The notes: generated by a model from the letters alone, not told the origin. 64,000 nucleotides of DNA from an uncultured Alphaproteobacteria bacterium (GCA_944392815.1 CALXXY010000004.1:23064-87063), one strand, 5' to 3'. Numbered from the stretch's first letter, positions 43,796 through 64,000 are shown. Program-made: numbers and translations.

Positions 43796-44596
43796 TAGAG
43801 TGTGAGTGTAGATGTTGTCTGCGCGTGCGCGCGGGATACCACCCCGTCGCGCAAAGCGCGCCACCCCTCCGCAGAGGGGAACTTTGGTCTGCGACGGTAC
43901 GTAGCCAGTTCCCCTCCGTTGGGGGGCGCAGGGCGGGGTGGTTTACTCGTTGCTTGTTATTCGTGACTCGTTATTCGTATGTGTGTCGCTCGGGCGCGTT
44001 GCGCCCTGTGCGTATCCTCGTATTTGTTCAAACTGCGCTGTCGCTTGTTTTCACATACTCGGATTCCCTCGGCTGGTGCCTGTGGGTATCCTCGTAGTTG
44101 TTCAAACTGCGCTGTCGCTTGTTTTCACATACTCGGATTCATCGCGAGCAAAGTGTGGCGATCCAGTAAATAAAAAAGCACTGCGGGCGTACCGCCCGCA
44201 GACATATTGCCCTGGATTGCCACAGTCGTACGCCAACGTTTCCAACGTTAGCAATGACAGGGGGGGCGACGCCATTCCATTAAAATGGAATGTCGCTCGC
44301 AATTAAATTGCTGCGCGTATCCTCGTAGTTATTCGAACGGCGCTTGCGCTTGTTCTCATATACTCGGATTCCCTCGGCTGATGCCTGTGGGTATCCTCGT
44401 ATTTGTTCAAACTGCGCTGTCGCTTGTTTTCACATACTCGGATTCATCACTGGGTGACGCCATTCCATTAAAATGGAATGTCGCTCGCAATTAAATTGCT
44501 GCGCGTATCCTCGTAGTTGTTCAAACTTCGCGTTGCTCGTTTTCACATACTCGGATTCGTCACCGGGTGACGCCATTCCATTAAAATGGAATGTCG
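43796..44596. repeat. Composite intergenic repeat cluster (families A, B, C plus heptamers)
   Basis: C core 43838-43885 with inverted partner 43908-43942; five ~55-bp A units (44012, 44086, 44317, 44391, 44505); three 28-bp B palindromes (44268, 44456, 44569); TTA(C/T)TCG-type heptamers 43943-43978. Confidence 0.92.
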
Positions 44597-48870: not shown

Positions 48871-48947
48871 CGGGGCGTAGCTCAGTCTGGTAGAGTGCTT
48901 GCTTTGGGAGCAAGATGTCGAAGGTTCGAATCCTTTCGCCCCGACCA
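48871..48947 (+). tRNA. tRNA-Pro(TGG)
   Basis: CGGGGCGTAGCTCAGTCTGGTAGAGTG-CTTGC-TTTGGGA-GCAAG-ATGTCGAAGGTTCGAATCCTTTCGCCCCG-ACCA. Confidence 0.97.
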
Positions 48948-48974
48948 GAAAATTCAAACCGTCGCATTTGCGGC
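48941..48974 (+). repeat. attL-like direct repeat (tRNA 3' end plus terminator)
   Basis: CCGACCAGAAAATTCAAACCGTCGCATTTGCGGC; 32/34 identical to 63967-64000; terminator hairpin 48956-48979. Confidence 0.88.
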
Positions 48975-49010
48975 GGTTTTAATTTTCTGTTTGGAACGTG
49001 CAGATTCAAA

Positions 49011-49134
49011 CGACAAACGGTCGTTTGTCGGGGGGCGAATCTTTCACTCGATTTATCACAAATATGTGATAAATCTGCGTGTATCCTCGTATTTATGCGA
49101 ACTGCGCTGGGCTTGTTCTTATATACTCGGATTC
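49011..49134. repeat. Palindromes plus a family A repeat copy
   Basis: CGACAAACG-GT-CGTTTGTCG (49011), GATTTATCACA-AATA-TGTGATAAATC (49050), A unit GTATCCTCGT...ATACTCGGATTC (49081-49134). Confidence 0.8.
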
Positions 49135-49326
49135 GCCCCGATTAAAATTTGCTGCTTGCGCCGAAAACGTGGGATTTTCTATTCAAAAATGCACGGTATG
49201 TGATTTTACAATTGCCAAATGCCCCCAATTTTCAGATATAACATACACTGGCAAATTTAGGACAGTCAATAGTATTGAAAAAAATAAGAAAATATCTACA
49301 TTTTAATAGAAAGAAAGGATTTGATT

Positions 49327-50139
49327 ATGACGGATAATTTACCAGAAGAAATAGAACAAGATAGCAAAGGTAAAAGAATAGCTAAGGCAGGACTTGATGT
49401 TTTGGCAGGTGCAATACCCTATGCCGGCGGGATTGTTTCTGCGATAAAGGGTGCATACCAGGATAAGCAACAAGAAAAAGCAAATGCTTTTTTATATAAT
49501 TGGATTTCAATGTTACAAGATGAAATGAAGGAAAAACAGCAGACGATTCTTGAAATTATGTCAAGATTAGATTTTCAAGATGAAAAAATTGCAGATAAAG
49601 TTTCTAGTACCGATTTTCAGTCATTATCAAAAAAAGCATTTCGTGAATGGGGGGCAGCCGAAAGTGAACAAAAGCGTATTTACATCAGAAATATACTTTC
49701 CAATACGGCTGCAGATACATCAGGGAGTTATAGCTATGATGTGGTCCGTATGTTCTTGGATTGGATAAAAACATATTCAGAGTTACATTTCAGAGTTGTT
49801 GAAGCCATTTATAATCAGCCGGAAGGTATTTCTCGTTTTGAAATATGGAATAAATTAGGTCGGCAACGGGTTAGAGAAGATTCCGCAGATGCAGATTTGT
49901 TTCGTTTGGTAATAAGAGATTTGTCTACAGGTGGAATAATTAGACAGCATCGTAATATTACAAGTGATGGTCAATTCATTAAGCAAAGGTCTGGTATTGG
50001 AAAAAGTTCTGCTTCGACACTGATGGAATCAGCATTTGAATCGAACAAGAAATATGAATTAACCAATTTGGGTAAGGACTTTGTACATTATGCGATGTCG
50101 GAACTTCCTATTAAGATAGAGTTTAAACCTGTTGATTAA
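49327..50139 (+). CDS. Hypothetical protein, possibly Abi-alpha/DUF4393-like
   Basis: N-terminal amphipathic helices (LAGAIPYAGGIVSA), FLDWIKTYSELHFRVV, wHTH-like end YELTNLGKDFV; AAAGGA RBS. Confidence 0.6.
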   Translation: MTDNLPEEIEQDSKGKRIAKAGLDVLAGAIPYAGGIVSAIKGAYQDKQQEKANAFLYNWISMLQDEMKEKQQTILEIMSRLDFQDEKIADKVSSTDFQSLSKKAFREWGAAESEQKRIYIRNILSNTAADTSGSYSYDVVRMFLDWIKTYSELHFRVVEAIYNQPEGISRFEIWNKLGRQRVREDSADADLFRLVIRDLSTGGIIRQHRNITSDGQFIKQRSGIGKSSASTLMESAFESNKKYELTNLGKDFVHYAMSELPIKIEFKPVD

Positions 50140-51770
50140 TTGATTTCATAAAACGCCTTTTCCTGCTCGTCGAAGTTTTCATATTTTTCTGCGATAAGGA
50201 ATAGTTCTTGTATGTTCGTATGATTATGTAATTCTCCGTTTAGAGCACTGTTTATGATCTTTGGCGACAAGTAAGCTAGGTTCAGATATTTATAAATTGT
50301 TCTCAGGTTGCGTTTTTCATCTCTGGCAATTTTCTTTATTCCGGCGCCACCTTCGTATAAGTTCTTATACCGCCAGGCTGTTGCAAATGCTTTTACTATC
50401 AGGTGGTTATTGTCGGTTATGCTAATAACTCCAGTCTTGGCGTCTTTATCAATACGCGTTGTTGCGTATTTACGTAGAATAACCGGAACGGTTATTATTA
50501 CTTCATCTTTGTTTGTTATAAAGTCCATTCGTTCGGTTGCTTCATTTATGTACACTTCACTGGTAAATTCTTGCCAACGCATCGGGTCAAGTGAGATATG
50601 AATTATCAGTTTCTCATTTGAATAAATAACTTTCTTTATGACGGATTGTATCAAGTTGCGCTTGGTATCGTATGTCATACTTGTCCAATCTATGCGTTTA
50701 ATTGCGTCTTTGGATTCAAGGGGCAGGGCGGACAAATCAGAATCCAGAAACTTTGTAAAAGTGCTCAGAACAATGGCGTCCAGTTGTGGTGCAGGCAGGT
50801 AAAATCCTTTGGACGCATAGTAATATTTTGTCTTTTGATTTTTACCTGAATTGCGTTGGTTCGTGAACTTAACACCTATATTATTGAACAGTTTGCCAGT
50901 CAAAAGGTTGGGCGAACGAAGGGCTTTTGATTTGTTATTCGTATTGTTTTGCAGGGCGTTTTGTACGGTGTTAAATAACTCATCTGATATGATTGGCTCG
51001 TGCGCACCACGGGCACGTGTTCCGTTTGCTTTGTGTGATATGAATCCGATATAAGTTTTAGCGCGCAGGATTCTGTGCATACTCATTTGTGTAATAGGCT
51101 TGCCACCACGCAAATCGCCACTGCGTGTTTGCCACTTCTTCGCCCAGATTCCATTTAGTTCTGCAAATTCAGTCAATGCGCTGACCGATTGAAATTCAAG
51201 GTATTGCTCAAACAAGGTCTTTACTTGTTGGGCTTCGGCTTCGTTTATAACCAGTTTTTTGTCTTTGATATCATAGCCCAACGGTGGAATGCCGCCCATC
51301 CATAAGCCTTTGGCTTTACTGGCGCGTATTTTATCACGTACTCGTTCGCTGGCGACTTCACGCTCAAACTGTGCAAATGATAATAACATATTCAATGTCA
51401 GCTTGCCCATAGAAGTACTGGTATCAAATGCTTGAGTAATGGACACAAAGTTGCAGTTATACTTATCAAAGTACTTCATCATATTGTGAAAGTCCAAGAT
51501 AGAGCGGGACAATCGGTCAACCTTGTACACGACAACAGTGTTTATTATGCCCTTGGCAATATCGGACAGCATTTCTTGCAGACCTGGGCGTTCCATTGTT
51601 CCACCAGATATACCACCGTCGCTGTAAGTTTTTGTATATTCCCAATTATTAAAGGCTTGCGATGAAATGTATGCTTTGCAAGATTGTTCTTGGTTATCCA
51701 AAGAGTTAAAAGCCTGTTCCAATCCATGTTCAGTAGATTTACGGACATACACTGCACATTTAATTATCAC
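50136..51770 (-). CDS. Large serine recombinase (integrase)
   Basis: AVYVRKST catalytic Ser, DGGISGGTMERPGL, DRLSR, FAQFERE, GGIPPLGY, YIG...GAHEPII. Confidence 0.95.
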   Translation of the reverse strand: MIIKCAVYVRKSTEHGLEQAFNSLDNQEQSCKAYISSQAFNNWEYTKTYSDGGISGGTMERPGLQEMLSDIAKGIINTVVVYKVDRLSRSILDFHNMMKYFDKYNCNFVSITQAFDTSTSMGKLTLNMLLSFAQFEREVASERVRDKIRASKAKGLWMGGIPPLGYDIKDKKLVINEAEAQQVKTLFEQYLEFQSVSALTEFAELNGIWAKKWQTRSGDLRGGKPITQMSMHRILRAKTYIGFISHKANGTRARGAHEPIISDELFNTVQNALQNNTNNKSKALRSPNLLTGKLFNNIGVKFTNQRNSGKNQKTKYYYASKGFYLPAPQLDAIVLSTFTKFLDSDLSALPLESKDAIKRIDWTSMTYDTKRNLIQSVIKKVIYSNEKLIIHISLDPMRWQEFTSEVYINEATERMDFITNKDEVIITVPVILRKYATTRIDKDAKTGVISITDNNHLIVKAFATAWRYKNLYEGGAGIKKIARDEKRNLRTIYKYLNLAYLSPKIINSALNGELHNHTNIQELFLIAEKYENFDEQEKAFYEIN

Positions 51771-52206
51771 GCTTTTTCCTTTTGTTTAATCCGAAGAAGT
51801 CGGGGCCAGATATTTTTATTCCGGTTATTTCTTTGGCAACGGCGGACAAGGTCGGAAAGATTTTGTCGTTGTATAAAAATGTTTTGTCTTCTTGAACCAA
51901 GATTTTGTGGTCTATGCCACGAAATGTTCTGGTGATTGTTGTCCCTGGGCTCAGGTTGTATCTATGTTGGTATACCACACTAGCGCATTCTGCTGGATCG
52001 GCTTTGTACTTTTTTAGTTTGTTCAGATATTTTGTTTCCAGATGAATGTGTGAAGTTTTGCATTGCATGTAATACCATAAAGCGCGCATTTGGCGCTTAA
52101 AAGGGTGGGGCGAATACCGTGCCCATAAACGCGCACGCTCATCTTGTGATAACGCTTTTAACTTTTCAAATGTTTTGGGTAAAATCTCTTTAACTTTCCG
52201 TTGCAT
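51760..52206 (-). CDS. DUF2924 family protein
   Basis: LSPGTTITRTFRG..H...TLSAVAKEITG...SGPDFFGL; start MQRKVK with AAGGA RBS. Confidence 0.85.
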   Translation of the reverse strand: MQRKVKEILPKTFEKLKALSQDERARLWARYSPHPFKRQMRALWYYMQCKTSHIHLETKYLNKLKKYKADPAECASVVYQHRYNLSPGTTITRTFRGIDHKILVQEDKTFLYNDKIFPTLSAVAKEITGIKISGPDFFGLNKRKKRDN

Positions 52207-52375
52207 TATTGTTTCCTTTTTGTCGCAGATGCTGCATAGCAATATCAACTAACATACGTAGAATACGCAGGTTGTGATATAGGTCTTTGTTGGTAATTTC
52301 CGGCATACGCCCGAATGGATTGCCGGAAGTGCCGATATGGAATCTGGTCGTTTTAGGCGGATTTTTGTATGGCAT
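52190..52375 (-). CDS. DUF5681-like small protein
   Basis: YKNPPKTTRFHIGTSGNPFGR matches the recalled YG.PP..TRF.KG.SGNP.GR pattern. Confidence 0.7.
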   Translation of the reverse strand: MPYKNPPKTTRFHIGTSGNPFGRMPEITNKDLYHNLRILRMLVDIAMQHLRQKGNNNATES

Positions 52376-52569
52376 TATTCAACCTCAAACCATTTCATAA
52401 CAGTGACAAGCAGGTGTGGGTAGTCTGCACTGGTGGCCTCGGTCAAGAATTCAGACCATTTGTCTTCTTTGCCGGCAAGGGTTAGGGCATTTTTACACCG
52501 TGCAAGGATAGCAAAAGCATTACCATCACGATTGGTTAAATAAACCTTTATGTCAGGGTATTTATGCAT
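52375..52569 (-). CDS. Small conserved phage/ICE-type hypothetical protein
   Basis: DGNAFAIL...F..EA.S.DY.HLL pattern; AAGGAG RBS; TAATG coupling to next gene. Confidence 0.7.
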   Translation of the reverse strand: MHKYPDIKVYLTNRDGNAFAILARCKNALTLAGKEDKWSEFLTEATSADYPHLLVTVMKWFEVE

Positions 52570-52640
52570 GTTGGACTCCTTTGTTTTTACTATGTTTTTA
52601 AGTTTGTCCAATTACTGCTTGGAAAGCGCCGAAAGTCAAG

Positions 52641-52853
52641 TTAAATAGATTTATTTTTATATACTGCGGTCAGTTGGGTAATTTTGCGGTGAAGGCGACG
52701 TAATAATATTCTGTCGCGACAGGGCAGGTAGCCACCATTACGGCGTCTAATACGATGCTCCATTTTATTCAAAATGCGACAAGCGCAATAATAAAGCATA
52801 TTGCAGGTAGAAACTTTGTTTGGCTTGATGACTTCATAAGATTTATACTTCAT
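52641..52853 (-). CDS. Small basic hypothetical protein (70 aa)
   Basis: Start MKYKSY with AAGGG RBS; the longer ORF-track start overlaps the divergent gene. Confidence 0.5.
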   Translation of the reverse strand: MKYKSYEVIKPNKVSTCNMLYYCACRILNKMEHRIRRRNGGYLPCRDRILLRRLHRKITQLTAVYKNKSI

Positions 52854-52998
52854 GCGACAACCCTTTTTATTAGTTGTCACATTTATGCTTACTATCTCGC
52901 CTTTGTCCTGTCCTTTGTCAATATGGTTTAATAGGTTAAAAAAGTCTTGCGGTATTTTATGTTTATTTTCTATACTTGAATAAAGCAATGGGGGGACG

Positions 52999-53937
52999 GT
53001 GCGTTTTATAGCTTTATTTTTAATGTTTTTACCTTTTACTGCCATGGCAGAGGTGTTGCCATTGTATGATGCACTACGTGGAACATATACTGCGTGCGTT
53101 GGTATTGATGAAGAACTGGCAGATTTAAAGAAAAAGGCAGGTATAAATACAGCGGTGACCGTTGTTGGAACGGCTACAGGTGTTGGAGCAACGGTTACTG
53201 GGGTAGTAAAGTCTTCTAAAGACAGTAAAATAGAATCGCTGGAGATTAAGCTAGAACAGCTGAGAGAAATAGAAAGTAAAAATCAGCAACAAGAAAGTGT
53301 AGAAAATAATTTTGATGCTTTTGCGTCAGAATTTGAGACGTCATATTCATCTATTGCACAACAGCTAAAAGATTATCAATCAGAGATAGACAAATTAACC
53401 GAGCAATCTAAAAATTTAGGTAATTGGCGTACAGGTTTATTGGCAGGTAGTACAGCGACGAATATAGCAGGTGCAGCGATATCTGGAACTAACAAAGTAA
53501 GTGCCGGCTTAAAAGAGCAGATAAATAGTTGTATATCAGCGGTTGATACGTTACAACAATCAATGATGCAGGCGCGATTAAATGGTGAAGATATAACGGA
53601 AGCGCAAAGAATAGTAGAAGCGTGTAAAGAATATGAATATGTAGATACATCAAAGATAGACAACAGGGCAAAAGGTGCAATGATATCTTCTGTTGTTGGG
53701 GCTACGACAGGATTAGCTGGTACGATAACATCAGCGACAGCAAATACTGACAAAACGCGTAATGATAATACAGCTTCAGGTAATCAGAAAGAAAAGAACT
53801 TAAATACGGCTTCAAATGTTTTATCTGGTGTAACGACGGTCGCATCAGCGACGGCTACGGGATTTAATGCAGCGCAGATATCAGCTATAAAGAAGGTTGC
53901 GGAAGTAGCGGAAAAATGCACGGGGGTACTGAAATGA
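52999..53937 (+). CDS. Secreted protein with G/A/T-rich hydrophobic hairpins and coiled coil
   Basis: Signal peptide; segments such as GINTAVTVVGTATGVGATVTGVV and GAMISSVVGATTGLAGTITSA; ATGA-coupled to next gene. Confidence 0.85.
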   Translation: MRFIALFLMFLPFTAMAEVLPLYDALRGTYTACVGIDEELADLKKKAGINTAVTVVGTATGVGATVTGVVKSSKDSKIESLEIKLEQLREIESKNQQQESVENNFDAFASEFETSYSSIAQQLKDYQSEIDKLTEQSKNLGNWRTGLLAGSTATNIAGAAISGTNKVSAGLKEQINSCISAVDTLQQSMMQARLNGEDITEAQRIVEACKEYEYVDTSKIDNRAKGAMISSVVGATTGLAGTITSATANTDKTRNDNTASGNQKEKNLNTASNVLSGVTTVASATATGFNAAQISAIKKVAEVAEKCTGVLK

Positions 53938-56900
53938 AAAGACTTCTGGTAGCATTTTTTATGATTTTAATAGTTGTTCCTTCCTATGCAGAAAACTGGA
54001 TAAGGTTTAAGAGTGAAGTTGTTGAAAAGGCAATAAATCAACTGGTGGCCAGTGAAAGACGTCAGGCTGCCGCGGATGAGTATCAGAAAAATATGGATCA
54101 AACGAATGGGAAAATATCTGTTACAGGTATATATAAAGTATGTATAGCATCTGGTTTTAATATACAGACAAATGATGGTTATAACCTATGCCGGAATTTT
54201 CTGAACTTTATGATGTCTGAATCAAAATTTGGGACAGGGAGCGCGACACAACAAAATTGTGCTAATAAGTTTAATGGTATTTGGACATTAAGTGCGGATG
54301 GGAATAAGTATCAATGTGTTGGACGTGATGGTTATGAATTGGTGTATAAGAGGTCATGTAGCGGTGCAGGAGGGGAGTGTATAAAACAATTTGCTGATTT
54401 GCAAACCCAGGGGTCAAACGGTCGTGAATTTATAAATGCATATGGAAAATTACATGGCCTGAATTTGACGTGCCATTCTGTTACAGAAACCAGACGCAGT
54501 GTTGCCAATCCATTGGGCCAAGATTATATAAAATGCAGTGCCGGTGGTCGGGCATACGAATTTGAATTTGATGATTTAAATCAGACCCCCGGCGACAAAT
54601 CGTCCCACAGTGAAAATACTGCGATATGCGAATTATACGGTGGCAAAATAGTTGACACCGGTGACAAGAATACAGAATCCATTTGGCAGTCTTGCGATAT
54701 ATCCAGTGAATTGTGTAATGGTGCTGTTGCTGATTTGGCAATGCGTACGGGACATACAGTTCAATATCAGGGTTATTGCCGTTTATCACGGAAAGCAAAG
54801 GTGGTTTCTGTTGTTGACTTGCACCAGATAGATGGCATAGACAGTCGTATATTTTATAATGCTGGGGCCCAGATGCGCATGGATACGGCAAAGCCGATGG
54901 TTGAAGAGTATTTGCGTACCCAATTCCCAAATGAAACATATATCGTATGCGATACCAATCCACGGGAATTAAACCGGGGGTTGGGGGTGGATATTGATTA
55001 TGTAATGTCGTGCACGGTTGGCGCGCAACGTGTTGATTTTGTATTTGATGATTTAAGTGAAAGTTTTGATTCCGATGCCGCAACCGGCATGGACATAATG
55101 CAATGTATTATAAATGGTGGCACGTTTAAAGGGGAAAGTTGTCGTGGTCCAACGAAGGAAGAATGTGAAAAATTGGATGCCGTATTACGCTCCAAAGGAT
55201 CTGATAAAGGAGCAAGATATGATGATGAAGCTCGTGCGTGTATATTGGGTAATGCAGAAGCTACGTATAAACGTGATGTTAGGGTTGGGTATGTTACAGG
55301 CGCAGTTGTGATTGTTGGCGGGGCGCTTGTTACAATTGGCACTGGTGGCGCTGCGGGACCTGTGGTGGTAAACGGTGTAGCTATGTTGGCTGGTGACATC
55401 GCGATAAACTATGCAATAGATGCAAATCATCAGCGTTTAACGAACAAAGCAGCAAAGAAGTTTGTAAATTTTGTGACTGATGCGGACGCGTGTACAACTG
55501 AACAGTGTGCACTAGATGTGTTGGAAAAGCATTATGCGACATTATCTGGCGTTATGATTGATTTGAATACTGATGACCAAGCGGTTGTTGATGAAACAAT
55601 GGACAAGTTGATAGGATTAATAAAGACCGAATTTGTTGCGTGTGGCAAGGATGATTCAGGCAAGACGATTTATGCGAGTCCGGCAGATTGTGCAATGCAA
55701 CAATCGCATCTAAAATTGATGGATTATATTGACCCGGTGTCTGAACCTGTTTTGATTATAGGAAGTATTGCATATAACCCAGGTTATGTAACAAACAAAT
55801 TTATGAAACTCAAAAAAGTCAGCAAATTGGCAAAATTTAATGATACGACGGATGCAGCAGTTGTCGCAGGCAGCAAAATAAAGAACCCAAAACAATGGAA
55901 GCCCGGCGAAGATGTTGCAGAATATATGGATGTTGAAAAGTTACAGTCAAAATTTGATGATATTGACAAACGGCATGCGGCTTATTTGGATGAATTGAAA
56001 CAGCGTAAAGAGAATTTGGAACAACTGAAATATAGCACACCTGCACAAACTGATGAACAAAAGGCACTAGCGAATGTTGCTTTTGATGAGTATGAAAAAC
56101 GACTAACACAGTTGGTAGAGAAAAATATGGATGAGTCGGCAGAGTATAACAAAGTAAAAGATGAAATCAGTTCATACAGAACCCAAATAAAAAATGAACA
56201 CCGAGCAGAGCTTGATAAATTAGAGACAAATGGTGATTATGTTGCATATATTTCGAAGTTTGAAGAATATGAAACTGATTTGTCCAAATCCTCTCCAGAA
56301 TTTGCGGCATTACTAAAAAGAGAAGAAGAGCTTGGTGCCAAATATGAAAAAACAAAGGAAATAATAGAATCATCATCTGACGACGTTGATTTACTACGAT
56401 TAAAACAAGAATATCAGACAGCCTCTAATGCAAAATCTCCTGCATACGAAGCTGTTCTAAATGAACAAGCATTTGTTGATGAGTTGATTCTTGATACAGA
56501 GAGAACAATAGGCGATGAAAAAAATGTTGCGTTATGGGATGCAATACCAAATGAAATCAAACAAAAATTGCCAGAAATTCGCGATAACGAAATTGTAGAA
56601 ATCCTAGCAAAAGACGACATGCTAACACATTATGTAAACAATTTTGACGAGGTTAGTAAAAACACAGAGTTGTATGATGATTTTTTGTCTCGTATAGCTC
56701 ATGGTTTCAATGGCAAACACAATATGTCAACCCCGGTCTCAATAAGCACATATAACAACCCTCATGCGCCACTGACGGGGGGACAAGCTGTAGGAAGTAA
56801 CATTCAATTCAACTCCGCCAGAAGTAATTATGTCGATTTAGATGGCACGATAGGAGTCGTAAAACATGAGGTAGGACATGTTATAGATAAGTATGCGCCA

Positions 56901-57209
56901 AACGATGGAATAATAGGCGAAACCTTACAAGCTATGGATACATGGACTTCACACGGAAATTACGACGAGCATTTTACAGTGGCGATTTCTCCATCTGGAT
57001 TAAACAGTTTTAGCGTTGGGGGAATTACTCCAGAGCAAACCAAATTATTAGAAACTGAAGGTTGGAAAATTATGGAAACAACAGATATAGATACTTATAC
57101 CAAATATAGAGCAAAACCAACTGAAAAAAGCTCATGGTCTATTACACCCACTTCTAACATCAAACAAAAGGTAAATTCGTATCGTGAGGCTAATGGCGTT
57201 ACGAAATAA
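53934..57209 (+). CDS. Large secreted multidomain protein with C-terminal HExxH zincin motif
   Basis: Signal peptide, two DY..C..G....F.FDDL repeats, TM hairpin, coiled coil, VKHEVGH. Confidence 0.85.
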   Translation: MKRLLVAFFMILIVVPSYAENWIRFKSEVVEKAINQLVASERRQAAADEYQKNMDQTNGKISVTGIYKVCIASGFNIQTNDGYNLCRNFLNFMMSESKFGTGSATQQNCANKFNGIWTLSADGNKYQCVGRDGYELVYKRSCSGAGGECIKQFADLQTQGSNGREFINAYGKLHGLNLTCHSVTETRRSVANPLGQDYIKCSAGGRAYEFEFDDLNQTPGDKSSHSENTAICELYGGKIVDTGDKNTESIWQSCDISSELCNGAVADLAMRTGHTVQYQGYCRLSRKAKVVSVVDLHQIDGIDSRIFYNAGAQMRMDTAKPMVEEYLRTQFPNETYIVCDTNPRELNRGLGVDIDYVMSCTVGAQRVDFVFDDLSESFDSDAATGMDIMQCIINGGTFKGESCRGPTKEECEKLDAVLRSKGSDKGARYDDEARACILGNAEATYKRDVRVGYVTGAVVIVGGALVTIGTGGAAGPVVVNGVAMLAGDIAINYAIDANHQRLTNKAAKKFVNFVTDADACTTEQCALDVLEKHYATLSGVMIDLNTDDQAVVDETMDKLIGLIKTEFVACGKDDSGKTIYASPADCAMQQSHLKLMDYIDPVSEPVLIIGSIAYNPGYVTNKFMKLKKVSKLAKFNDTTDAAVVAGSKIKNPKQWKPGEDVAEYMDVEKLQSKFDDIDKRHAAYLDELKQRKENLEQLKYSTPAQTDEQKALANVAFDEYEKRLTQLVEKNMDESAEYNKVKDEISSYRTQIKNEHRAELDKLETNGDYVAYISKFEEYETDLSKSSPEFAALLKREEELGAKYEKTKEIIESSSDDVDLLRLKQEYQTASNAKSPAYEAVLNEQAFVDELILDTERTIGDEKNVALWDAIPNEIKQKLPEIRDNEIVEILAKDDMLTHYVNNFDEVSKNTELYDDFLSRIAHGFNGKHNMSTPVSISTYNNPHAPLTGGQAVGSNIQFNSARSNYVDLDGTIGVVKHEVGHVIDKYAPNDGIIGETLQAMDTWTSHGNYDEHFTVAISPSGLNSFSVGGITPEQTKLLETEGWKIMETTDIDTYTKYRAKPTEKSSWSITPTSNIKQKVNSYREANGVTK

Positions 57210-57322
57210 AAACATTGTACTACAGTCCATGGCAAGAAATGATGCACAACAAATCATTGAACGTCGTGCCGAGATGCAGTAAGTATGAAGCAATATATTC
57301 CCTATACGGTATGTACGAATTA

Positions 57323-57843
57323 TCAGAAATATTTTTCTATTCCTTGGCGGAACTGGTCGGTAAATATCGTTTTGAAATACGACCAATCGTTCTGCTCGTA
57401 AAATATATCATGCCTTTCTTATATTCTATCTCGTCCGCACTGCGATATGATAACGGACAATAGTCAGCAGCCAACAATAATGCATTTCCAACCGTACGTG
57501 CTGTGCGCTTGTTTCCGTCTTCAAACGGTTGGATATACGAAATCAGCAATGTGTCGCCTCCACCAACATATATGATATCAGTGTTATCTAAAATTTTTCG
57601 AATATTATCTATGGTCGGAGGATTGTTGATTAAACGCAGTTCTGAAACATTAGCCCCCAAGGATTGAAAATGCGTTATCAGGAAATCTGTATAAGACGGC
57701 AAATCGTTGTCTTGCAGAGCCTTTTTAATGTCTGGGTCTTCGTATTCCCACGCCAAAAAAGCAATCATTAGCGCCTGGTTAAAGCGCTGTCTGAATTTTG
57801 TGTTTTTCCAAGTAAAATCAAAAAACTTATCAAAGTTATTCAT
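57323..57843 (-). pseudogene. Chimeric remnant: peptidase E (S51) 5' part fused to Fic 3' part, frameshifted
   Basis: DIIYVGGGDT then directly YIQPFEDGNKRTAR; a 1-nt frameshift near 57400 restores YEQNDWSYFKTIFTDQFRQGIEKYF*. Confidence 0.8.
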
Positions 57844-57901
57844 GGTAAAAATCCTTTTGCCTCAGCATAGCAAAATCCAGGACATATGCAATTTTTTATT
57901 G

Positions 57902-58010
57902 AAAAAAACGGGGCTTGCGCCCCAGGGGATCCGTAATTGGTTTACCCCACAGAAAATATTCTTTATTATATAAACGGTTGCTTCTCAAATCGTCCGTTGA
58001 ATAAAGATTT
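57902..58010 (-). ncRNA. tracrRNA
   Basis: 19-nt anti-repeat at 57976-57994; minus strand GACGATTTGAGAAGCAACCGTTTATATAATAAAGAATATTTTCTGTGGGGTAAACCAATTACGGATCCCCTGGGGCGCAAGCCCCGTTTTTTT ends in hairpin plus U-tract; 5' end approximate. Confidence 0.88.
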
Positions 58011-58113
58011 CTATGAGAGATATGTTATATTAAACTTATTTGTTTTTCAAGTTTTTTTATTGCTTTTTTGCTAATGTTTTATACCATATGAAAAACGATG
58101 CACGGAGTTAAAA

Positions 58114-61044
58114 ATGTCAAAGATTTTTGGGTTTGATTTAGGTGTTGCTAGTATTGGCTGGGCTGTTGTGGAATTGCCAGATGTTCCAGATAATGTTGTT
58201 CTGGATGAAAGTAATAGGCTTGAAGGTAAAATTTTGGGTGCCGGGGTGCGTTGTTTTGATACCGCACTTAATGGTCAAGATCGCAGAAATGCAAGGTCAA
58301 TGCGCCGTAGAATACGTCATCGTGCGCAAAGAATGCGTGAAATACGTGCTTTATTAAGAAGTGAAGGGCTGATAGATATTCCAGAACCAAAACATAACGG
58401 TCATAACAATTTTTATCTGAATAAAGATATAGATGAAAATATTTGGAAACTACGTGCGGTTTCTGCATTTGAACGCCCTTTGAATCAACGAGAAGTTGGG
58501 AGAATTTTATATCATTTGGCTAAGCATCGTGGATATGATGATATTACTTATCCGATAGCACAGGGCGAAGTCAAAGAAAAAGACGGGGAAAAGAGTTCCG
58601 ACGAATTAAAAGCTACTGGATGTATAAAAGATAATCTTTTGCTTTTGAATCAAGAAGGCAATTCTAATAAAACAATGTGTCAGGTTTTATATGCTAAAAA
58701 CCCGAAACAAATGCGTAATCATAAAAATGTTGTTGCGAAAAAGACAAAAAATGGAGAAATAAAATATTCTGAGGAGGCAACGTATACGAATTCTATTCCG
58801 CGTTCGGAAATAAAGCGTGAAGCAGAAATGATTTTGCACGCACAAAAAACTTTCGGAAACGATTTTTCAGATTTGTTTGAAAAATGGGAAAAAATCGCTT
58901 TTCGTCAACGTAAGTTCAATGAATCTGGCTCGCCGATGGCAAAGTCTGTTGATGAAATGCGTGGTCGTTGCATCTTTACAAATGAACCTGTCGCGCCGAA
59001 AGAAGCACCAACAGCTCAGTTGTTTGTTGCGCTTAGTAAATGTAATCAGAATGGTTTTAGTGCCGAACAGATAAAAAAAGTTATAGATGCATTGTATAAG
59101 AAAAAGACAGGTTTATCTTATGCAGATGTAAGAAAGTTGTTGGATTATGATGGTCCGTTTGCCACTTTGAATTACAAGCGTGAATATGACAAAGAAACCA
59201 AGAAATGGTTAGAGCCAGATATAAAAAAGATAGAAAAAGAAAAGTTTGCAACGTTTACCGGATATCATAAATTATGCGATTTTACAGACAATTTGTCTGA
59301 TATGGATAAAATATTTGAAATTATTGCCACGCAAAAAACGCAAAAAAATATAGAGCAAGAAGTTTCAAAGATTTGCCCAGAACACGCAAAACAAATTTCA
59401 GAAATTACAACGTCAAAATTCTTGAATTTATCTCTGACTGCATTGCGTACGCTGGTTCCAGAAATGGAACAGGGAAAGTCATACAGTCAAGCCTGTGAAG
59501 CTCGTGGCTGGAATCATCGGACCTCTGGCGAATCTTTTGTTGATATAACAGACGAAGTTCAGCCGGGATATTTGCGTCGTATAAATTGGGTAAAATTGGG
59601 AAATCGTGTAACTTCACCGGTCGTGAAACGTACACTTTCGCAAATGCATAAAGTCTATAATGCGATGTTTTATCGCTATGGTTGCCCTGATAGAGTTCAT
59701 TTAGAAATTGGTAGGGAATTAAAAAAATCCCCAGATGATATCGCTCGTATAAACAGAGAAATTGAAAAAAATAGAAAAGCCAATGAAGAAGCATATAAGG
59801 AGTATGGAAAACATTTTCACAAGTATAAGCTGTACATGGAACAAAGTGGTCAGTGTATATATTGCGGAAAAAAGTTAGAGGCTGGCTTGTGGGATGCATA
59901 CGAGATAGACCATATTCTGCCATATTCACGTTCTTTGGACAATTCGCAGTCTAATAAAGTTTTGGTCTGTCGCGAATGTAATCAGCGCAAGGGGAATAAA
60001 ACACCGTACGAATTTATGTCAAATCAGGAATTCTTTGAAATGACTGTTCGGGCTCGTGCTTTGAATAATTCAGCAAAATTTAGAAAATTGACGAATATTG
60101 ATTTGCCTTCATCGTATGATGAAAAAAATGACTTTATTGCAAGAAATGCAAATGATAATGCTACAATTGCACGTTTTGCCAGTCAGTATTTAGAGCAGGG
60201 GATTGATTGGGGAAAAGATAATAAAAAACATATATTGGTGCGAACAGGTGCTTTGACAGATTATTTGCGGCATCAGTGGGGATTGGAAAAATCACGTGAA
60301 GAATCAGACAAGCATCATGCCCAAGACGCGATAGTTATTGCTTGTGCAACGCAAGACATGGTCAGATATTTGGCGACATTGTCTGCAAAATTCGAAAATA
60401 AATGGGCTTTGATTGGCGAAAATGGGGAAGCTTGGTATAAACAGTTAAAGAAGTCTATATCAGAACCTTGGACTAATTTCAGGGCAGATGTTTTGTCTTG
60501 TTTGGATTCAGTGTTTGTTTCGCGTCCACCGCGTTGTAATGCAACTGGGCAAGCACATAACGAAACAATTTGTGGAAAAATGAATTCTTACAATACCAAG
60601 AAAAATAGGAACTTGAAAAAGAATCGTGGTGGTGGCACCTTAAATGTTCGTTTTGGTAAGGCTGATCGTGGCAATATGTTCCGTTTTGATATATGGAAAC
60701 AGAAAAACGGAAAACACAAGTGCGTTCCTGTATATGTTTCTGATTTAGTTGAAAAAAACGATGCAAAATTTATAGTCGCAGATGCTGAATTTGTATGTAC
60801 TTTGCACAAGGATGATTATGTAAAGTTAACAACACGTAAAGGCGAAGTTTTTGAAGGCTATATAACTCAAATGGATCATGGCACTAATTTTATTTTATAC
60901 AGACAAGATAATAGCAAGGTACAGGTTGTAAAAAAATCTGTTGGTGAATGCGAAAAAATTGAAAAGTATTCTGTGACTTTGTTGGGAAATAAAAAGTTGG
61001 TCAGATTGCCAGAAAAAAGACAACCCGTTGTAAAAAGTAAATAG
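58114..61044 (+). CDS. cas9: Type II-C Cas9 (976 aa)
   Basis: RuvC-I GFDLGVASIGWA, Arg-rich bridge helix, RuvC-II HLEIGRE, HNH EIDHILPYSRSLDNS..NKVL...CNQRKGNKTP, RuvC-III HHAQDA. Confidence 0.98.
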   Translation: MSKIFGFDLGVASIGWAVVELPDVPDNVVLDESNRLEGKILGAGVRCFDTALNGQDRRNARSMRRRIRHRAQRMREIRALLRSEGLIDIPEPKHNGHNNFYLNKDIDENIWKLRAVSAFERPLNQREVGRILYHLAKHRGYDDITYPIAQGEVKEKDGEKSSDELKATGCIKDNLLLLNQEGNSNKTMCQVLYAKNPKQMRNHKNVVAKKTKNGEIKYSEEATYTNSIPRSEIKREAEMILHAQKTFGNDFSDLFEKWEKIAFRQRKFNESGSPMAKSVDEMRGRCIFTNEPVAPKEAPTAQLFVALSKCNQNGFSAEQIKKVIDALYKKKTGLSYADVRKLLDYDGPFATLNYKREYDKETKKWLEPDIKKIEKEKFATFTGYHKLCDFTDNLSDMDKIFEIIATQKTQKNIEQEVSKICPEHAKQISEITTSKFLNLSLTALRTLVPEMEQGKSYSQACEARGWNHRTSGESFVDITDEVQPGYLRRINWVKLGNRVTSPVVKRTLSQMHKVYNAMFYRYGCPDRVHLEIGRELKKSPDDIARINREIEKNRKANEEAYKEYGKHFHKYKLYMEQSGQCIYCGKKLEAGLWDAYEIDHILPYSRSLDNSQSNKVLVCRECNQRKGNKTPYEFMSNQEFFEMTVRARALNNSAKFRKLTNIDLPSSYDEKNDFIARNANDNATIARFASQYLEQGIDWGKDNKKHILVRTGALTDYLRHQWGLEKSREESDKHHAQDAIVIACATQDMVRYLATLSAKFENKWALIGENGEAWYKQLKKSISEPWTNFRADVLSCLDSVFVSRPPRCNATGQAHNETICGKMNSYNTKKNRNLKKNRGGGTLNVRFGKADRGNMFRFDIWKQKNGKHKCVPVYVSDLVEKNDAKFIVADAEFVCTLHKDDYVKLTTRKGEVFEGYITQMDHGTNFILYRQDNSKVQVVKKSVGECEKIEKYSVTLLGNKKLVRLPEKRQPVVKSK

Positions 61045-61101
61045 TTTACTATATATACTGTATTAGATTGGTGGGAAAGGATACAAACAAAGGCGTTTTT
61101 T

Positions 61102-62016
61102 ATGTCTTGGCGTGTTCTTACCTTGACCAATCCTGGTCGTGTTTGTGTTAAACACAGGCAACTGAATTGGACAGATGAGGCAGGTAATATTCAAAATATT
61201 CCAATAGAAGATATTTCTGTCTTGATCATAGAAAATCCATATATACAAATTTCTTCTGCGGTGTTGGCGGATTTGGCGGCGGCAGGGGCGGTTGTTTTTA
61301 CTTGTGATTCTTCACATTTGCCAAATGGTGCATTGTTTCCATTTCATAACAATTCCAGATATACAGAAAGTGCTTTTGCACAAATAGAATCTTCTTTGCC
61401 ATTTCGTAAGCGTATGTGGCAAGAAATAGTAGTGCAAAAAATAAAAAATCAATCAGCAATTTTAAGATTGGTTGGATCTGGGGCGTATAAAAATTTGGAT
61501 ATACTGGCCAACAGTGTTCAGTCTGGTGATTGTCAAAACATAGAAGGTGTTGCAGCACGTGTATATTGGGGTGCTTTGTGGGAAAAATTTAACAGGAATG
61601 ATATTTCAAATGTAAAAAATCATGCGCTGGATTACGCTTATGCTGTTTTGCGTGGGTGTGTTGCAAGGTGTGTGGTTGGGGCGGGCTTGCTGCCGTTTTA
61701 TGGTATTCATCATTGTAATAAGTTAGATAATTTTTGTTTAGTTGATGATTTGATAGAACCTTGGCGTCCTTTTGCAGATTTTGTAGTTAATAAAATTGAT
61801 TGGACTACAAATGATTCTTTGACTCCGCAAATTAAACAACGCTTGATATCTGTATTGCTGCATGGATGTAATTTTAATGGAAAACAACATTCTATATTGA
61901 ATGCTATGCCGTTGTATGCGGAATCAGTTGCAAGTTGTTTTAAAAATAAAACATTAAAGAATTTGAAATTGCCGACTATTAAATCAGAACCACAGATAAT
62001 AAATACACAGAATTAA
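61102..62016 (+). CDS. cas1: CRISPR-associated Cas1 (type II)
   Basis: IPIEDI, EGVAARVYW, N.ALDYAYAVLRG, GIHH...DDLIEP. Confidence 0.97.
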   Translation: MSWRVLTLTNPGRVCVKHRQLNWTDEAGNIQNIPIEDISVLIIENPYIQISSAVLADLAAAGAVVFTCDSSHLPNGALFPFHNNSRYTESAFAQIESSLPFRKRMWQEIVVQKIKNQSAILRLVGSGAYKNLDILANSVQSGDCQNIEGVAARVYWGALWEKFNRNDISNVKNHALDYAYAVLRGCVARCVVGAGLLPFYGIHHCNKLDNFCLVDDLIEPWRPFADFVVNKIDWTTNDSLTPQIKQRLISVLLHGCNFNGKQHSILNAMPLYAESVASCFKNKTLKNLKLPTIKSEPQIINTQN

Positions 62017-62018
62017 CC

Positions 62019-62351
62019 ATGAAATATAAATATCAGGAAAAGTTTATGCGAATAATAGTATTTTTTGATTTGCCAGTCAGCACAAAAAAGGAACGGTATT
62101 ATGCAACGCGGTTCAGAAATGATTTGTTGAACGATGGCTATTATATGATGCAGTTTTCTGTTTATTCGCGGATGGTAAAGGGGCTTGCGGATGCAGAAAA
62201 GCATATTCAAAGATTGCATAACTTAACCCCGCCATCTGGTTCTGTTCGTGTTTTAACGGTTACAGAAAAACAATTTGCTGATATGTTTTTTCTGGTTGGA
62301 CAACCGCCACAGGCAGAAAAAATCGGAACACAGCAACTATTAATGTTTTGA
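62019..62351 (+). CDS. cas2: CRISPR-associated Cas2
   Basis: FMRIIVFFDLP, YYMMQFSVYSR, LTVTEKQF; no csn2 or cas4 follows. Confidence 0.97.
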   Translation: MKYKYQEKFMRIIVFFDLPVSTKKERYYATRFRNDLLNDGYYMMQFSVYSRMVKGLADAEKHIQRLHNLTPPSGSVRVLTVTEKQFADMFFLVGQPPQAEKIGTQQLLMF

Positions 62352-62416
62352 AAAAACTATTTGTTTTATTAAAAAATAGGCAGAAATTTTTATAAAATTT
62401 TTATGATAAAAACAAT

Positions 62417-62444
62417 AAAAACCCACAAAAAACTGTGGGTTATT
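62417..62444 (-). terminator. Terminator for minus-strand array transcripts
   Basis: Minus strand AATA-ACCCACA-GTTTTT-TGTGGGT-TTTT. Confidence 0.6.
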
Positions 62445-62452
62445 GTTCGTCT

Positions 62453-63280
62453 ATTATATCAAAGACGATTTGAGAAGCAACCTATAACATACCAACTGAC
62501 CCCGGTGTCTTTGTTATAATTATATCAAAGACGATTTGAGAAGCAACCTATAACAATCGCTATTCTGGATTAAATCGTCATCTGATTATATCAAAGACGA
62601 TTTGAGAAGCAACCTATAACGCTATATACCAACAAATACGACACTTTGTAATTATATCAAAGACGATTTGAGAAGCAACCTATAACTATTCTGATACAAA
62701 GTTCCATAATCTCGTCATTATATCAAAGACGATTTGAGAAGCAACCTATAACAAAAAAGGGGATTCGGTTTTGTATGCAAATATTATATCAAAGACGATT
62801 TGAGAAGCAACCTATAACATACCAATGAATAACCTTTCATACCAACTTATTATATCAAAGACGATTTGAGAAGCAACCTATAACCCTGATTTTTTGTTTG
62901 TGTATCGTGTTGCGATTATATCAAAGACGATTTGAGAAGCAACCTATAACAGAGGCAACCGGCCAACCGCTGGACATATTATTATATCAAAGACGATTTG
63001 AGAAGCAACCTATAACAACAGCAACGTGTTTATCAACGCTTGCAATATTATATCAAAGACGATTTGAGAAGCAACCTATAACGCGGTTAAATCGATCGTC
63101 AAGGGCAAGATTATTATATCAAAGACGATTTGAGAAGCAACCTATAACGCATAAACAACCGAATCGCCCTTTTTATGAATTATATCAAAGACGATTTGAG
63201 AAGCAACCTATAACTTAAATCGTATGGTATTTGATTTTATGAAAATTATATCAAAGACGATTTGAGAAGCAACCTATAGA
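62453..63280 (-). CRISPR. CRISPR array: 13 repeats of 36 bp, 12 spacers of 30 bp
   Basis: Repeat on + ATTATATCAAAGACGATTTGAGAAGCAACCTATAAC every 66 bp from 62453 to 63245; last copy ends ...TATAGA (degenerate); crRNA orientation GTTATAGG...TGATATAAT. Confidence 0.99.
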
Positions 63281-63291
63281 TTTTTAAGTTT

Positions 63292-63639
63292 TTATTTAAT
63301 AATCTCGTGTTTGAACCATTGTTCTTGGAATTTGGTTTTTTGTTCTATGAATTGGTTCGTTATCTTTAAGCCGTCTGGAACAACCACCAGTTTATCATCG
63401 TTATCGTTTGTGCGGTGAATAATTGCTACACAACGTCCTGTGAATTCTTTTAATGGTTTGTCTATGCCTAAAACATATGCGTCAAGCTCTTCGCCATCAC
63501 CAGAAACTGTGTTTGGAATGTAACCATAGTTTACTTCGTACACAAAGCCGTGCTTTGGGTGCTTTGTGCCCAATGGTCTGTCCATGACGACAGATACAAT
63601 TTTGTTCAGATAGTCAGAAGATTTGGTTTGGTGTGGCAT
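63292..63639 (-). CDS. ppa: Short family I inorganic pyrophosphatase-like protein
   Basis: YEVNYGYIPNT..GDGEELDAYVLG, DDKLVV; start MPHQTK with AAGGGG RBS. Confidence 0.8.
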   Translation of the reverse strand: MPHQTKSSDYLNKIVSVVMDRPLGTKHPKHGFVYEVNYGYIPNTVSGDGEELDAYVLGIDKPLKEFTGRCVAIIHRTNDNDDKLVVVPDGLKITNQFIEQKTKFQEQWFKHEIIK

Positions 63640-63717
63640 GTTGGGGCCCCTTTTTTCGAAAAGTATCACATATACCCCGAAAAACAAGATAAAAATGGGC
63701 TTCGCTGTTAGCTTATC

Positions 63718-63902
63718 AAATTCCCTGATGTTCGAGGATAATTCCCTGATATGTTATAAAAAAATCCCTGTTATTTTTGTAGGGAACTTTGGGGTGAGTG
63801 GGGCGTAAGTGCCTAGAAAACCGCGGGTGGATTCTAGTACAAGTTGTGTGGATTTTGGTCAAAATACCCGTTTTTTGCAAAAATTCCCTGTTTTTCCCTG
63901 TT
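63718..63902. repeat. Cluster of TCCCTG motifs at the element right end
   Basis: TCCCTG at 63722, 63742, 63765, 63885, 63895; inverted AGGGAA at 63781. Confidence 0.7.
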
Positions 63903-63966
63903 TTTTATTGCAAGGCGTATGTGTTTTAGCCGATTTTGTATGTGCCACAGGGCGCGGTATTTGAAT

Positions 63967-64000
63967 CCGACCAGAAAATCCAACCCGTCGCATTTGCGGC
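63967..64000 (+). repeat. attR-like direct repeat (truncated by window end)
   Basis: CCGACCAGAAAATCCAACCCGTCGCATTTGCGGC, 2 mismatches vs 48941-48974. Confidence 0.88.

Follow-up and report, generated by a model that had tools for sequence, protein, structure and literature searches.

A putative eroded serine-recombinase element at tRNA-Pro with a type II-C CRISPR-Cas cassette as cargo in a gut alphaproteobacterium

Most descriptions of serine integrases place them at protein genes or repeats, tRNA ends being considered the domain of tyrosine integrases. SCC elements such as SCCmec use recombinases (Ccr) of the large serine recombinase (LSR) type to enter a conserved housekeeping gene at its 3' end, have a short direct repeat and build up tandem composites with variable cargo, and in these respects they resemble the locus described here; they differ in that the target is the rlmH (orfX) protein gene, the hosts are Firmicutes, the cargo is resistance genes and there is neither DUF2924 nor a terminase. 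In this study, we analyzed a 64,000-nt stretch of DNA (the window) from an uncultured alphaproteobacterium (GCA_944392815.1, CALXXY010000004.1:23064-87063), the last 15 kb of which hold an LSR gene, a DUF2924 gene and a CRISPR-Cas9 system beside a tRNA-Pro gene. An initial annotation had proposed this segment as an undescribed system; however, LSR islands, mobile CRISPR-Cas systems and tRNA hotspots are kinds already known, and Cas9 on a mobile element is precedented by CampyICE1.

We conclude that the segment is probably an eroded copy of a family of small, phage-related elements that use an LSR to enter tRNA 3' ends, with the type II-C cassette as cargo. The members would be 12- to 24-kb integrative elements of Candidatus Enterousia and allied gut Alphaproteobacteria, in which the LSR, its gene preceded by that for DUF2924, would insert a circular element at a specific tRNA 3' terminus by a recombination chemistry that we infer. 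For the present copy, the target would be tRNA-Pro(UGG) and the core CCGACCAGAAA. After insertion, the LSR gene would face the tRNA gene, which would be given a new terminator hairpin by the element, the native terminator being pushed to the right-hand attachment (att) site, attR. Cargo slots would lie between the conserved ends, one of them holding the II-C cassette (57904-63279), which has itself moved horizontally between element backbones. Tandem accretion between tRNA-Pro and the DUF308 gene would explain a native-type terminator copy at both ends, and the present copy would have lost its canonical left arm and a block of ParB-methylase, TerS-like and TerL genes.

The source genome is labeled G000, and the window corresponds to G000:C4:23064-87063; G denotes genomes, C contigs and L fetched loci. 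The assembly (927 kb, 18 contigs, 46% G+C) is from Candidatus Enterousia-like or allied gut Alphaproteobacteria; Candidatus Enterousia is placed in the order Rs-D84, the genomes of which are <1 Mb (PMC12306168). Open reading frames (ORFs) of the island were scanned against Pfam, PHROG and PADLOC, and selected ORFs were compared with PDB sequences. The family survey covered 80 public LSR loci with 43 to 96% LSR identity, 65 of which had enough flanking DNA, and LSR relationships were taken from a maximum-likelihood tree. Since the second copy of the repeat touches the window end (64000), the contig was read past that point.

The LSR-DUF2924 module, its tRNA targets and its junctions

The intact LSR, the DUF2924 protein and the complete set of tracrRNA, cas9, cas1, cas2 and array that had been annotated were confirmed by Pfam, PHROG, PADLOC and repeat analysis. 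The resolvase domain of the LSR (PF00239) spans residues 6 to 156, with an N terminus (...YVRKST...) that fits the Y-x-R-x-S motif; the PF07508 (Recombinase) match and the length of 544 aa also fit an LSR, and phrog_95 covers residues 2 to 342 only. The orthologues at tRNA-Pro in G273 and G274 are 96% and 92% identical in amino acid (aa) sequence. The gene for DUF2924, a RAMA-like DNA binder (PMC11342252), directly precedes the LSR gene in almost every one of the 80 family loci, and its product is a candidate regulator or directionality factor. The gene annotated as DUF5681 is present as a 61-aa DUF5681-like stub, although its family match is weak and falls below the cut-off.

The first eight LSR homologues examined all face a tRNA 3' end (Ser, Tyr or Pro) at a distance of 0.16 to 2.8 kb, and these full-length homologues include a 63% identical LSR paralogue on G000:C1; a convergent tRNA gene lies just past the LSR stop codon, within 3.6 kb, in 59 of the 65 informative public loci. 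In the tree, the tRNA-Pro LSRs form one clade (100/100) and the tRNA-Tyr LSRs another (100/99), the remainder being at tRNA-Ser. Judged from these positions, the LSR-DUF2924 module belongs to a family that targets tRNA 3' ends in a site-specific manner. The family elements with both ends defined are 11.8, 19 and 24 kb in length.

Relatives with clean junctions delimit the att sites. In G058, G008 and G273, the conserved left end begins ~40 nt after tRNA-Pro, and the clean attL of G058, G008, G273 and G236 reads from the tRNA through CCGACCAGAAA into a distinct 40-nt hairpin arm and then into the sequence from window position 49158 onward. At attR, an identical or near-identical 40-nt arm ending in ...GGTATTTGAAT is found in G000, G058, G274 and G275 and is followed by CCGACCAGAAA and the native terminator; the C region of the right end also occurs in L112 and L148. 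The common core is no longer than 11 bp (CCGACCAGAAA) and is 8 bp for the arm type of G274 and G228. Short cores were located by k-mer search: the 11.8-kb tRNA-Ser element of Candidatus Enterousia avicola (L112) is bounded by a 12-bp repeat and the 19-kb sibling element on G000:C1 by a 14-bp repeat, and no long direct repeat was found within 20 kb at eight other LSR loci. Family cores deduced from the relatives' clean attL/attR pairs are 8 to 14 bp, and the arms differ on both sides; the putative att sites of the family thus have the very short common core and nonidentical arms of the LSR type. The same comparison of clean attL and attR sites indicates that the element supplies its own tRNA terminator and displaces the native one to attR.

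A 34-bp direct repeat had been described as starting at the tRNA's CCGACCA and bracketing ~15 kb. This repeat is real (48941-48974 versus 63967-64000, 32/34 identical) and, once followed beyond the window, extends to 72 bp (48941-49012 versus 63967-64038, 61/72 identical). Its first 49 nt give an E value of 8e-13 against the whole 0.93-Mb genome, far above chance, and there is no third copy in that genome; the repeat is not part of a larger segmental duplication. The core begins with the last 7 nt of tRNA-Pro (CCGACCA), and straight after the tRNA CCA each copy contains an imperfect palindrome of ~44 bp, a terminator-like hairpin whose stem is preserved by one compensatory change (A.T to C.G) between the copies. 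The copy 1 sequence also lies 3' of tRNA-Pro in G052, G004, G059 and G013, genomes in which no intact LSR element adjoins this gene, and tRNA-Pro together with copy 1 looks like an unoccupied attB. Because clean junctions in relatives give a core of 8 to 11 bp, the 72-bp repeat is best read not as the crossover core that had been assumed but as the native tRNA terminator present twice, copy 2 being the native terminator displaced to the far junction and copy 1 a native-type terminator still on the tRNA. The left junction of G000 is noncanonical, being without ~34 nt (the remainder of the core and the hairpin arm) found in the relatives' clean attL. Of the attP predicted from the repeat, the P arm (...TTTGAAT followed by CCGACCAG) is right, whereas the other arm in the relatives is the element-borne hairpin and not ...GAAAATTC. 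A 20-nt pattern of arm plus core found in public contigs only attR or tandem junctions (G274, G058 and G275) and chance matches (Haliea, TARA and soil).

The region between copy 1 and the conserved left end was considered as a pseudo-tRNA scar, a possibility that was mostly rejected: it is a dispersed repeat unit, and likeness to a tRNA end is confined to the 7-nt GCCCCGA that follows. This family-A unit (49075-49134) has eight copies in G000. Short dispersed repeats also lie near ssb (43839-43927 and 44140-44250), and the two units neighboring family-A occur in dozens of copies in G274, in appearance an expansion like that of miniature inverted-repeat transposable elements.

In many genomes, C-terminal LSR fragments (approximately residues 400 to 544) persist beside att sites or cas9, and they are far commoner than N-terminal fragments; examples are L052:2716-3087, L047:3023-3394, L058:10263-10568, L074:12126-12343, L076:15088-15459 and G275:C7:49601-50011. 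PHROG 14161, a family of 143 positions, matches only LSR residues 419 to 539. Deletions may repeatedly end at this point, or the C-terminal part may be a small gene in its own right.

The tRNA-Pro hotspot, the type II-C cassette and other cargo

The LSR core (window 50145-52892) also occurs at tRNA-Pro of G273 and G274, where its DNA identity is 90 to 92% versus 72 to 77% for the backbone. The right end is also common to G000 and G274, sister elements sharing it and the LSR core at ~90% DNA identity, and orf272 is 99% identical at the amino acid level in G058 versus 59 to 84% for flank proteins; taken together, the values are 90 to 95% against 68 to 77% for the backbone. Identity higher than that of the flanking backbone indicates horizontal transfer of the LSR core and of the cas cassette. 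Related LSR-DUF2924 elements do carry cargo unlike that of G000: methylases, Fic and two reverse transcriptases in G273; glycosyltransferases, radical SAM and PHP proteins in G274; and GmrSD, KAP and AAA ATPases in G228.

The tRNA-Pro site is occupied in G273, G274 and G236 and holds internally deleted remnants in G052, G058 and G008. An element-free site, sought among the relatives, was found in G013, where DUF308 comes directly after tRNA-Pro with nothing between them; the locus therefore shows presence/absence polymorphism. In G274, G275 and G228, a newer element lies at the tRNA beside an older one. At the same tRNA-Pro in G056 (L060:1812-9599) there is an 8.4-kb element that encodes a tyrosine integrase of 516 aa together with a DUF927 protein, and its repeat, of at least 120 nt including the terminator, reaches 10 nt further into the tRNA and >110 nt downstream. 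From these arrangements, the interval from tRNA-Pro to DUF308 is a tandem-accretion hotspot for several LSR lineages and for tyrosine-integrase elements. In G004, tandem attB-like duplications are present at the locus, and a native-type terminator copy on both sides of the island can be explained by a tyrosine-integrase element or by such a duplication.

The true right-hand backbone marker of the locus is the DUF308 gene. In the right flank, rmlD was rejected for this role, since it is at the tRNA-Pro locus only in G000 and G228. The rmlD-rmlC pair (64092-65487, past the window end; L001:256-1651) lies between the island and DUF308 only in these two genomes, and in 24 other genomes of the genus rmlD is on a different contig or distant from tRNA-Pro; therefore, this pair has also been relocated into the hotspot.

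By gene content, the cas module is a complete type II-C CRISPR-Cas system: csn2 (II-A) and cas4 (II-B) are absent, and there is no ORF between cas2 and the array. The anti-repeat of the tracrRNA is a perfect 19-nt match, and the tracrRNA has no Rfam family match. The boundaries of the cassette (57904-63279) are sharp in comparison with relatives. The stretch homologous to G228 runs from 57904, where the tracrRNA has its 3' end, to 63278, where the array ends. Similarity to G273 breaks off at 57900, to the left of the cassette, and that to relatives bearing the PPase-like gene begins at 63280-63293, to its right. In G236, the cassette is 95% identical, compared with 68 to 77% for the backbone and ~80% for the LSR cores. 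In G228, the cassette, 83% identical and thus near the backbone level, is preceded by a displaced canonical attL hairpin arm, a remnant of an LSR gene and a GmrSD gene, and a newer LSR element is placed between the cassette and tRNA-Pro. Because the LSR accompanying the cassette in G228 is dead and no second repeat is present there, and because the cassette in G236 is so much closer than the LSR cores, the cas module can be regarded as an exchangeable cassette that is not tied to the G000 LSR and that, as these comparisons indicate, has moved horizontally between element backbones. The proposal that the island delivers II-C immunity is thus upheld insofar as a complete system lies between conserved ends; however, the cassette is exchangeable rather than bound to this recombinase.

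The distribution of cas9 in the genus is patchy (21 of 257 genomes, in several lineages), with three lineages in the tRNA-Pro to DUF308 interval, and LSR remnants adjoin cas9 at other loci (G019, and G065 at tRNA-Ser). The G000 and G228 arrays have identical repeats and no spacer in common (21 spacers in G228). None of the G000 spacers matched the host genome or any of the fetched loci, and an exact search of viral contigs with three of them gave no match. L143 was considered as a second element with both LSR and cas9 and was rejected, its cas9 being beyond the tRNA and outside the element. In two other-lineage cases, cas9 starts 236 to 265 bp after a tRNA 3' end, namely, L078:1817-4839 (G003, Pro-UGG) and L143:16162-19183 (Ser-GCU), with no recombinase between cas9 and the tRNA; cas cassettes may reach tRNA ends by a non-LSR route, or the traces of the element may have been lost.

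The remaining features of the segment are listed with the others in Table 1. The initial annotation had named a possible Abi gene (orf272) and a toxin-like or secreted effector-like pair (orf312 and orf1097). These identities found no support: orf272 has no match in Pfam, PHROG, PADLOC or PDB sequences, orf1097 has no family match in Pfam, PHROG or PADLOC and no PDB match, and orf312, likewise unmatched in PADLOC, has nothing beyond a Pfam CUX1_N match under the threshold and a weak match to a PHROG family of unknown function. A paralogous pair is present on G000:C5:428-2646 (57% and 24% identity), and a homologous pair lies beside the cas operon of G096 (L080:3352-5945). From this distribution, orf312 and orf1097 appear to be a lineage-specific family of exported proteins that moves with defence cargo.

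The gene annotated as ppa encodes a 131-aa accessory protein with a truncated PPase fold; the real, housekeeping ppa is on G000 contig C2. The possibility that the annotated ppa is a core gene, which would speak against mobility, was dismissed, since the true ppa is elsewhere and the PPase-like gene is patchy and element linked. Elements in L112, L148, G275 and G058 have the PPase-like gene at their right end, those in L112 and L148 being LSR elements at different tRNAs. In the genus, the PPase-like protein was found in ~20 of 61 genomes, often with a length of 121 to 131 aa, and within a 284- to 298-aa ORF in six genomes.

Table 1. Features of the tRNA-Pro segment (positions in the window)
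Feature	Position	Strand	Evidence or remark
tRNA-Pro(UGG), predicted integration target	48871..48947	+	ARAGORN; Rfam RF00005, 68.6 bits
Repeat copy 1: core CCGACCAGAAA and native-type tRNA terminator hairpin	48941..49012		palindrome ~48946-48989
Second small hairpin, one family-A dispersed repeat unit (ends 49134), degenerate junction GCCCCGA/TTAAAAT...	49013..49157		
Conserved left end of element	49158..49320		90-95% DNA identity vs 72-77% backbone
orf272, variable cargo slot between attL and LSR	49321..50139	+	99% aa in G058, 94% in G014
LSR, 544 aa, intact	50136..51770	-	PF00239 2.6e-39, PF07508 1.4e-11; phrog_95 integrase 1e-98
DUF2924 (RAMA-like DNA-binding) protein, upstream of LSR	51760..52248	-	PF11149 1.6e-19
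DUF5681-like stub, 61 aa	52190..52375	-	PF18932 4e-4 (below cut-off); phrog_26239; 92-93% aa in G273, G274
orf78 (phrog_1933) and orf134, end of conserved core common to G273/G274	52375..53045	-	
orf312 and orf1097, overlapping pair, signal-peptide-like N termini	52999..57209	+	
orf168, chimeric remnant	57337..57843	-	N terminus of 280-aa G273-element gene plus Fic and S51 fragments
tracrRNA, tRNA-independent; left edge of cas cassette	57902..58000	-	anti-repeat 57976-57994, terminator 57902-57923
cas9, 976 aa	58114..61044	+	HNH_4 8.8e-20, RuvC_III 1e-17; PADLOC Cas9 8e-129
cas1 (type II)	61102..62016	+	Cas1 II/NMENI model
cas2	62019..62351	+	Cas2_II model
CRISPR array, right edge of cassette	62453..63280		36-nt repeats (13, the last one degenerate) and 30-nt spacers (12)
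PPase-like accessory gene, 131 aa, truncated PPase fold	63292..63687	-	recurrent right-end gene of element family
Conserved right end: C region and 40-nt arm ending ...GGTATTTGAAT (P arm of attR)	63688..63966		
Repeat copy 2: core and displaced native terminator (putative), B' arm of attR	63967..64000 (on to 64038)		

State of the G000 copy and rival explanations

Sibling elements encode a full TerL (phrog_38, 3e-104) together with a ParB-methylase and a DUF5681-like protein of 138 aa. This block is present in G273, in G000:C1 and in 38 to 40 of the 80 loci, and TerL and the DUF5681-like gene are also present in G274; a 404- to 416-aa ORF lies next to TerL in siblings. No capsid, portal or tail family was found in the scanned siblings (G000:C1 and G274 complete, G273 to the contig end). 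Given their size of 12 to 24 kb, their TerL and this lack of capsid, portal and tail families, the siblings are as would be expected of phage-satellite-like elements, and their transfer would presumably proceed by capsid hijacking, with a helper and induction. The sibling on G000:C1 (G000:C1:169656-188654, L064) is a second complete family element, 19 kb in length, at tRNA-Ser with a 14-bp repeat of the tRNA end; its cargo comprises the ParB-methylase, DUF5681-like and TerL genes, an HNH/methylase pair, four glycosyltransferases and NUDIX, and the slot between LSR and tRNA holds a 642-aa HATPase_c_3 protein.

In the tRNA-Pro island of G000, the ParB-methylase/TerS-like/TerL block is absent, with only the 61-aa DUF5681-like stub in evidence, and there is no terminase gene of the kind that packaging of a phage satellite calls for. 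As had been annotated, the Pfam and PHROG scans gave no match to conjugation, replication or capsid families among the island ORFs; relaxase, coupling protein and type IV secretion families were likewise unmatched. Because the packaging block has been lost, orf168 is a chimeric remnant and the left junction is odd, the G000 copy appears to be eroded, and present autonomous mobility is unlikely; it probably acts now as a defence island that stays in place and does not transfer autonomously. The LSR core and right end do occur at the same tRNA-Pro in other species, at identities above that of the backbone and with other cargo; for this copy, with a noncanonical left junction and no packaging block, the mobilisability named in the earlier description is doubtful.

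Several observations weigh against our interpretation. The whole G000 configuration was found in no other genome, the predicted attP junction (26 nt) was unmatched in public genome and metagenome contigs, and the Pfam scan of the LSR gave no zinc-ribbon domain. Distant LSRs (45 to 53% identity) in G228 and G028 are also at tRNA-Pro, so that target and clade are not related one to one. Repeat copy 1 may be either native (B') or element borne (P'): the repeat, the A unit and the left end travel together in G052, the G274 remnant and G014, and copy 1 could be this variant's own P' arm. Every one of the hairpin arms is a version of the same terminator design, and LSR identity does not predict which arm type is present, G274 (92% LSR identity) and G228 (45%) having the same arm type. 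Finally, G228 shares the cas cassette and rmlDC-DUF308 at 78 to 83%, near the backbone level, and has no PPase-like gene, right end or second repeat; long residence in G228 is equally compatible with a chromosomal locus.

Some of these points bear on a different, and we believe unlikely, explanation: that the segment is a single intact and currently mobilisable LSR island, with the 34/72-bp repeat as attL and attR, which would yield a circle with the junction ...TTGAAT-CCGACCAGAAAATTC and an empty tRNA-Pro site. The intact LSR ORF, the canonical right junction and a repeat that flanks the island exactly are all consistent with such an island, recombination by the LSR or by homology anywhere in the repeat would restore a normal tRNA and terminator, and the linkage of repeat, A unit and left end noted above could reflect an own P' arm. 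However, the cores of the family are 8 to 14 bp and not 72 bp, in close relatives the left end is connected to the tRNA by another 40-nt hairpin arm, which is missing from G000, and the tRNA-proximal copy is the terminator of genomes without an intact LSR element abutting the tRNA; moreover, the packaging block of the siblings is missing and the attP was not found in public assemblies. It can also be envisioned that the CRISPR-Cas system is an old chromosomal resident of the tRNA-Pro/DUF308 interval beside which unrelated LSR elements landed, the system being their neighbor instead of cargo and the repeat a by-product of successive insertions. The near-backbone synteny of the cassette and rmlDC-DUF308 in G228 would fit this view, as would the different cas9 of G003 at 265 bp after tRNA-Pro with no LSR, the cas9 of L143 just after another tRNA and outside its LSR element, and the three Cas9 lineages in the interval. 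We consider it rather improbable, though, because the G000 cassette lies between the family's conserved left end and core and its right end (PPase-like gene, C region and arm), the G228 cassette directly follows a displaced canonical attL arm and an LSR remnant, the G236 cassette is 95% identical against a backbone of 68 to 77%, the cassette edges coincide with module boundaries in G273 and in relatives bearing the PPase-like gene, and LSR remnants adjoin cas9 in G019 and G065.

There is, in addition, a small chance that the family consists of true temperate phages and that the segment is a decayed prophage remnant with trapped defence genes. The complete siblings with both ends defined measure only 11.8 to 24 kb, and the scanned siblings (G000:C1, G274 and partial G273), which lack capsid, portal and tail families, are filled with glycosyltransferases, restriction-modification and defence genes, all of which argues against temperate phages, even though the LSR is a phrog_95 integrase, DUF2924, orf78 and DUF5681 match PHROG families, the siblings have a full TerL and ParB-methylase, and a DUF2924-recombinase pair is found in Wolbachia phage WO regions (PMC10299305). 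An eroded member of a tRNA-targeting LSR element family therefore remains our preferred reading; the finding is real and coherent, and the G000 copy is probably decaying. Beyond the single locus, we put forward only tentatively, at somewhat less than even odds, the broader proposal that an undescribed, phage-satellite-like family of tRNA-3'-end LSR elements with its own terminase is the main vehicle by which defence islands, whole Cas9 cassettes included, are built and shuffled in gut Alphaproteobacteria with <1-Mb genomes, each LSR lineage reading a different tRNA end and bringing a replacement terminator.

Significance and comparison with known systems

These results mean that a widely spread LSR family uses tRNA 3' termini, with a lineage-linked choice of target (Pro, Tyr or Ser). 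The junctions are easily defined, which makes the family useful for the study of LSR site recognition and a source of new LSR/att pairs; if each LSR lineage does read a different tRNA end, the family would offer a natural set of orthogonal pairs. The comparisons further suggest that bacteria with genomes of <1 Mb still acquire and exchange adaptive immunity, and that a compact, complete II-C system with a 976-aa Cas9 behaves as a cassette in small integrative elements at a tandem-accretion hotspot.

Tyrosine-integrase tRNA islands and prophages, such as the G056 element, resemble the elements described here in targeting a tRNA 3' end, regenerating the tRNA, forming tandem arrays and carrying defence cargo. 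They differ in using another recombinase family and in having long repeats (at least 120 nt), whereas the LSR elements have cores of 8 to 14 bp and bring in a different terminator. The integration sites of phage WO, to our knowledge, lie outside tRNA genes. In its integrase module, Wolbachia phage WO has the same pair of DUF2924 followed by a serine recombinase, also in Alphaproteobacteria (PMC10299305, PMC11342252); the likeness is one of shared domains only, and phage WO is a full tailed prophage of ~65 kb (PMC10299305).

The PLE of Vibrio cholerae is, like the family here, a small, LSR-integrated, phage-related element that lacks capsid genes and has a role in defence (PMC9638900). Unlike this family, PLE targets integron repeats rather than tRNA genes, has a known helper phage, ICP1, and carries no CRISPR-Cas system (PMC9638900); the siblings described here, set against PLE, carry their own TerL, and no helper or induction is known for them. 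With respect to cargo, CampyICE1 likewise places a type II-C Cas9 on an integrative mobile element, but it is conjugative, 70 to 129 kb in length and carries Cas9 only, with no cas1 or cas2 (10.1101/2021.06.01.446523). In contrast, the island of G000 is 15 kb in length, has no conjugation genes and holds a complete adaptation module together with the tracrRNA.

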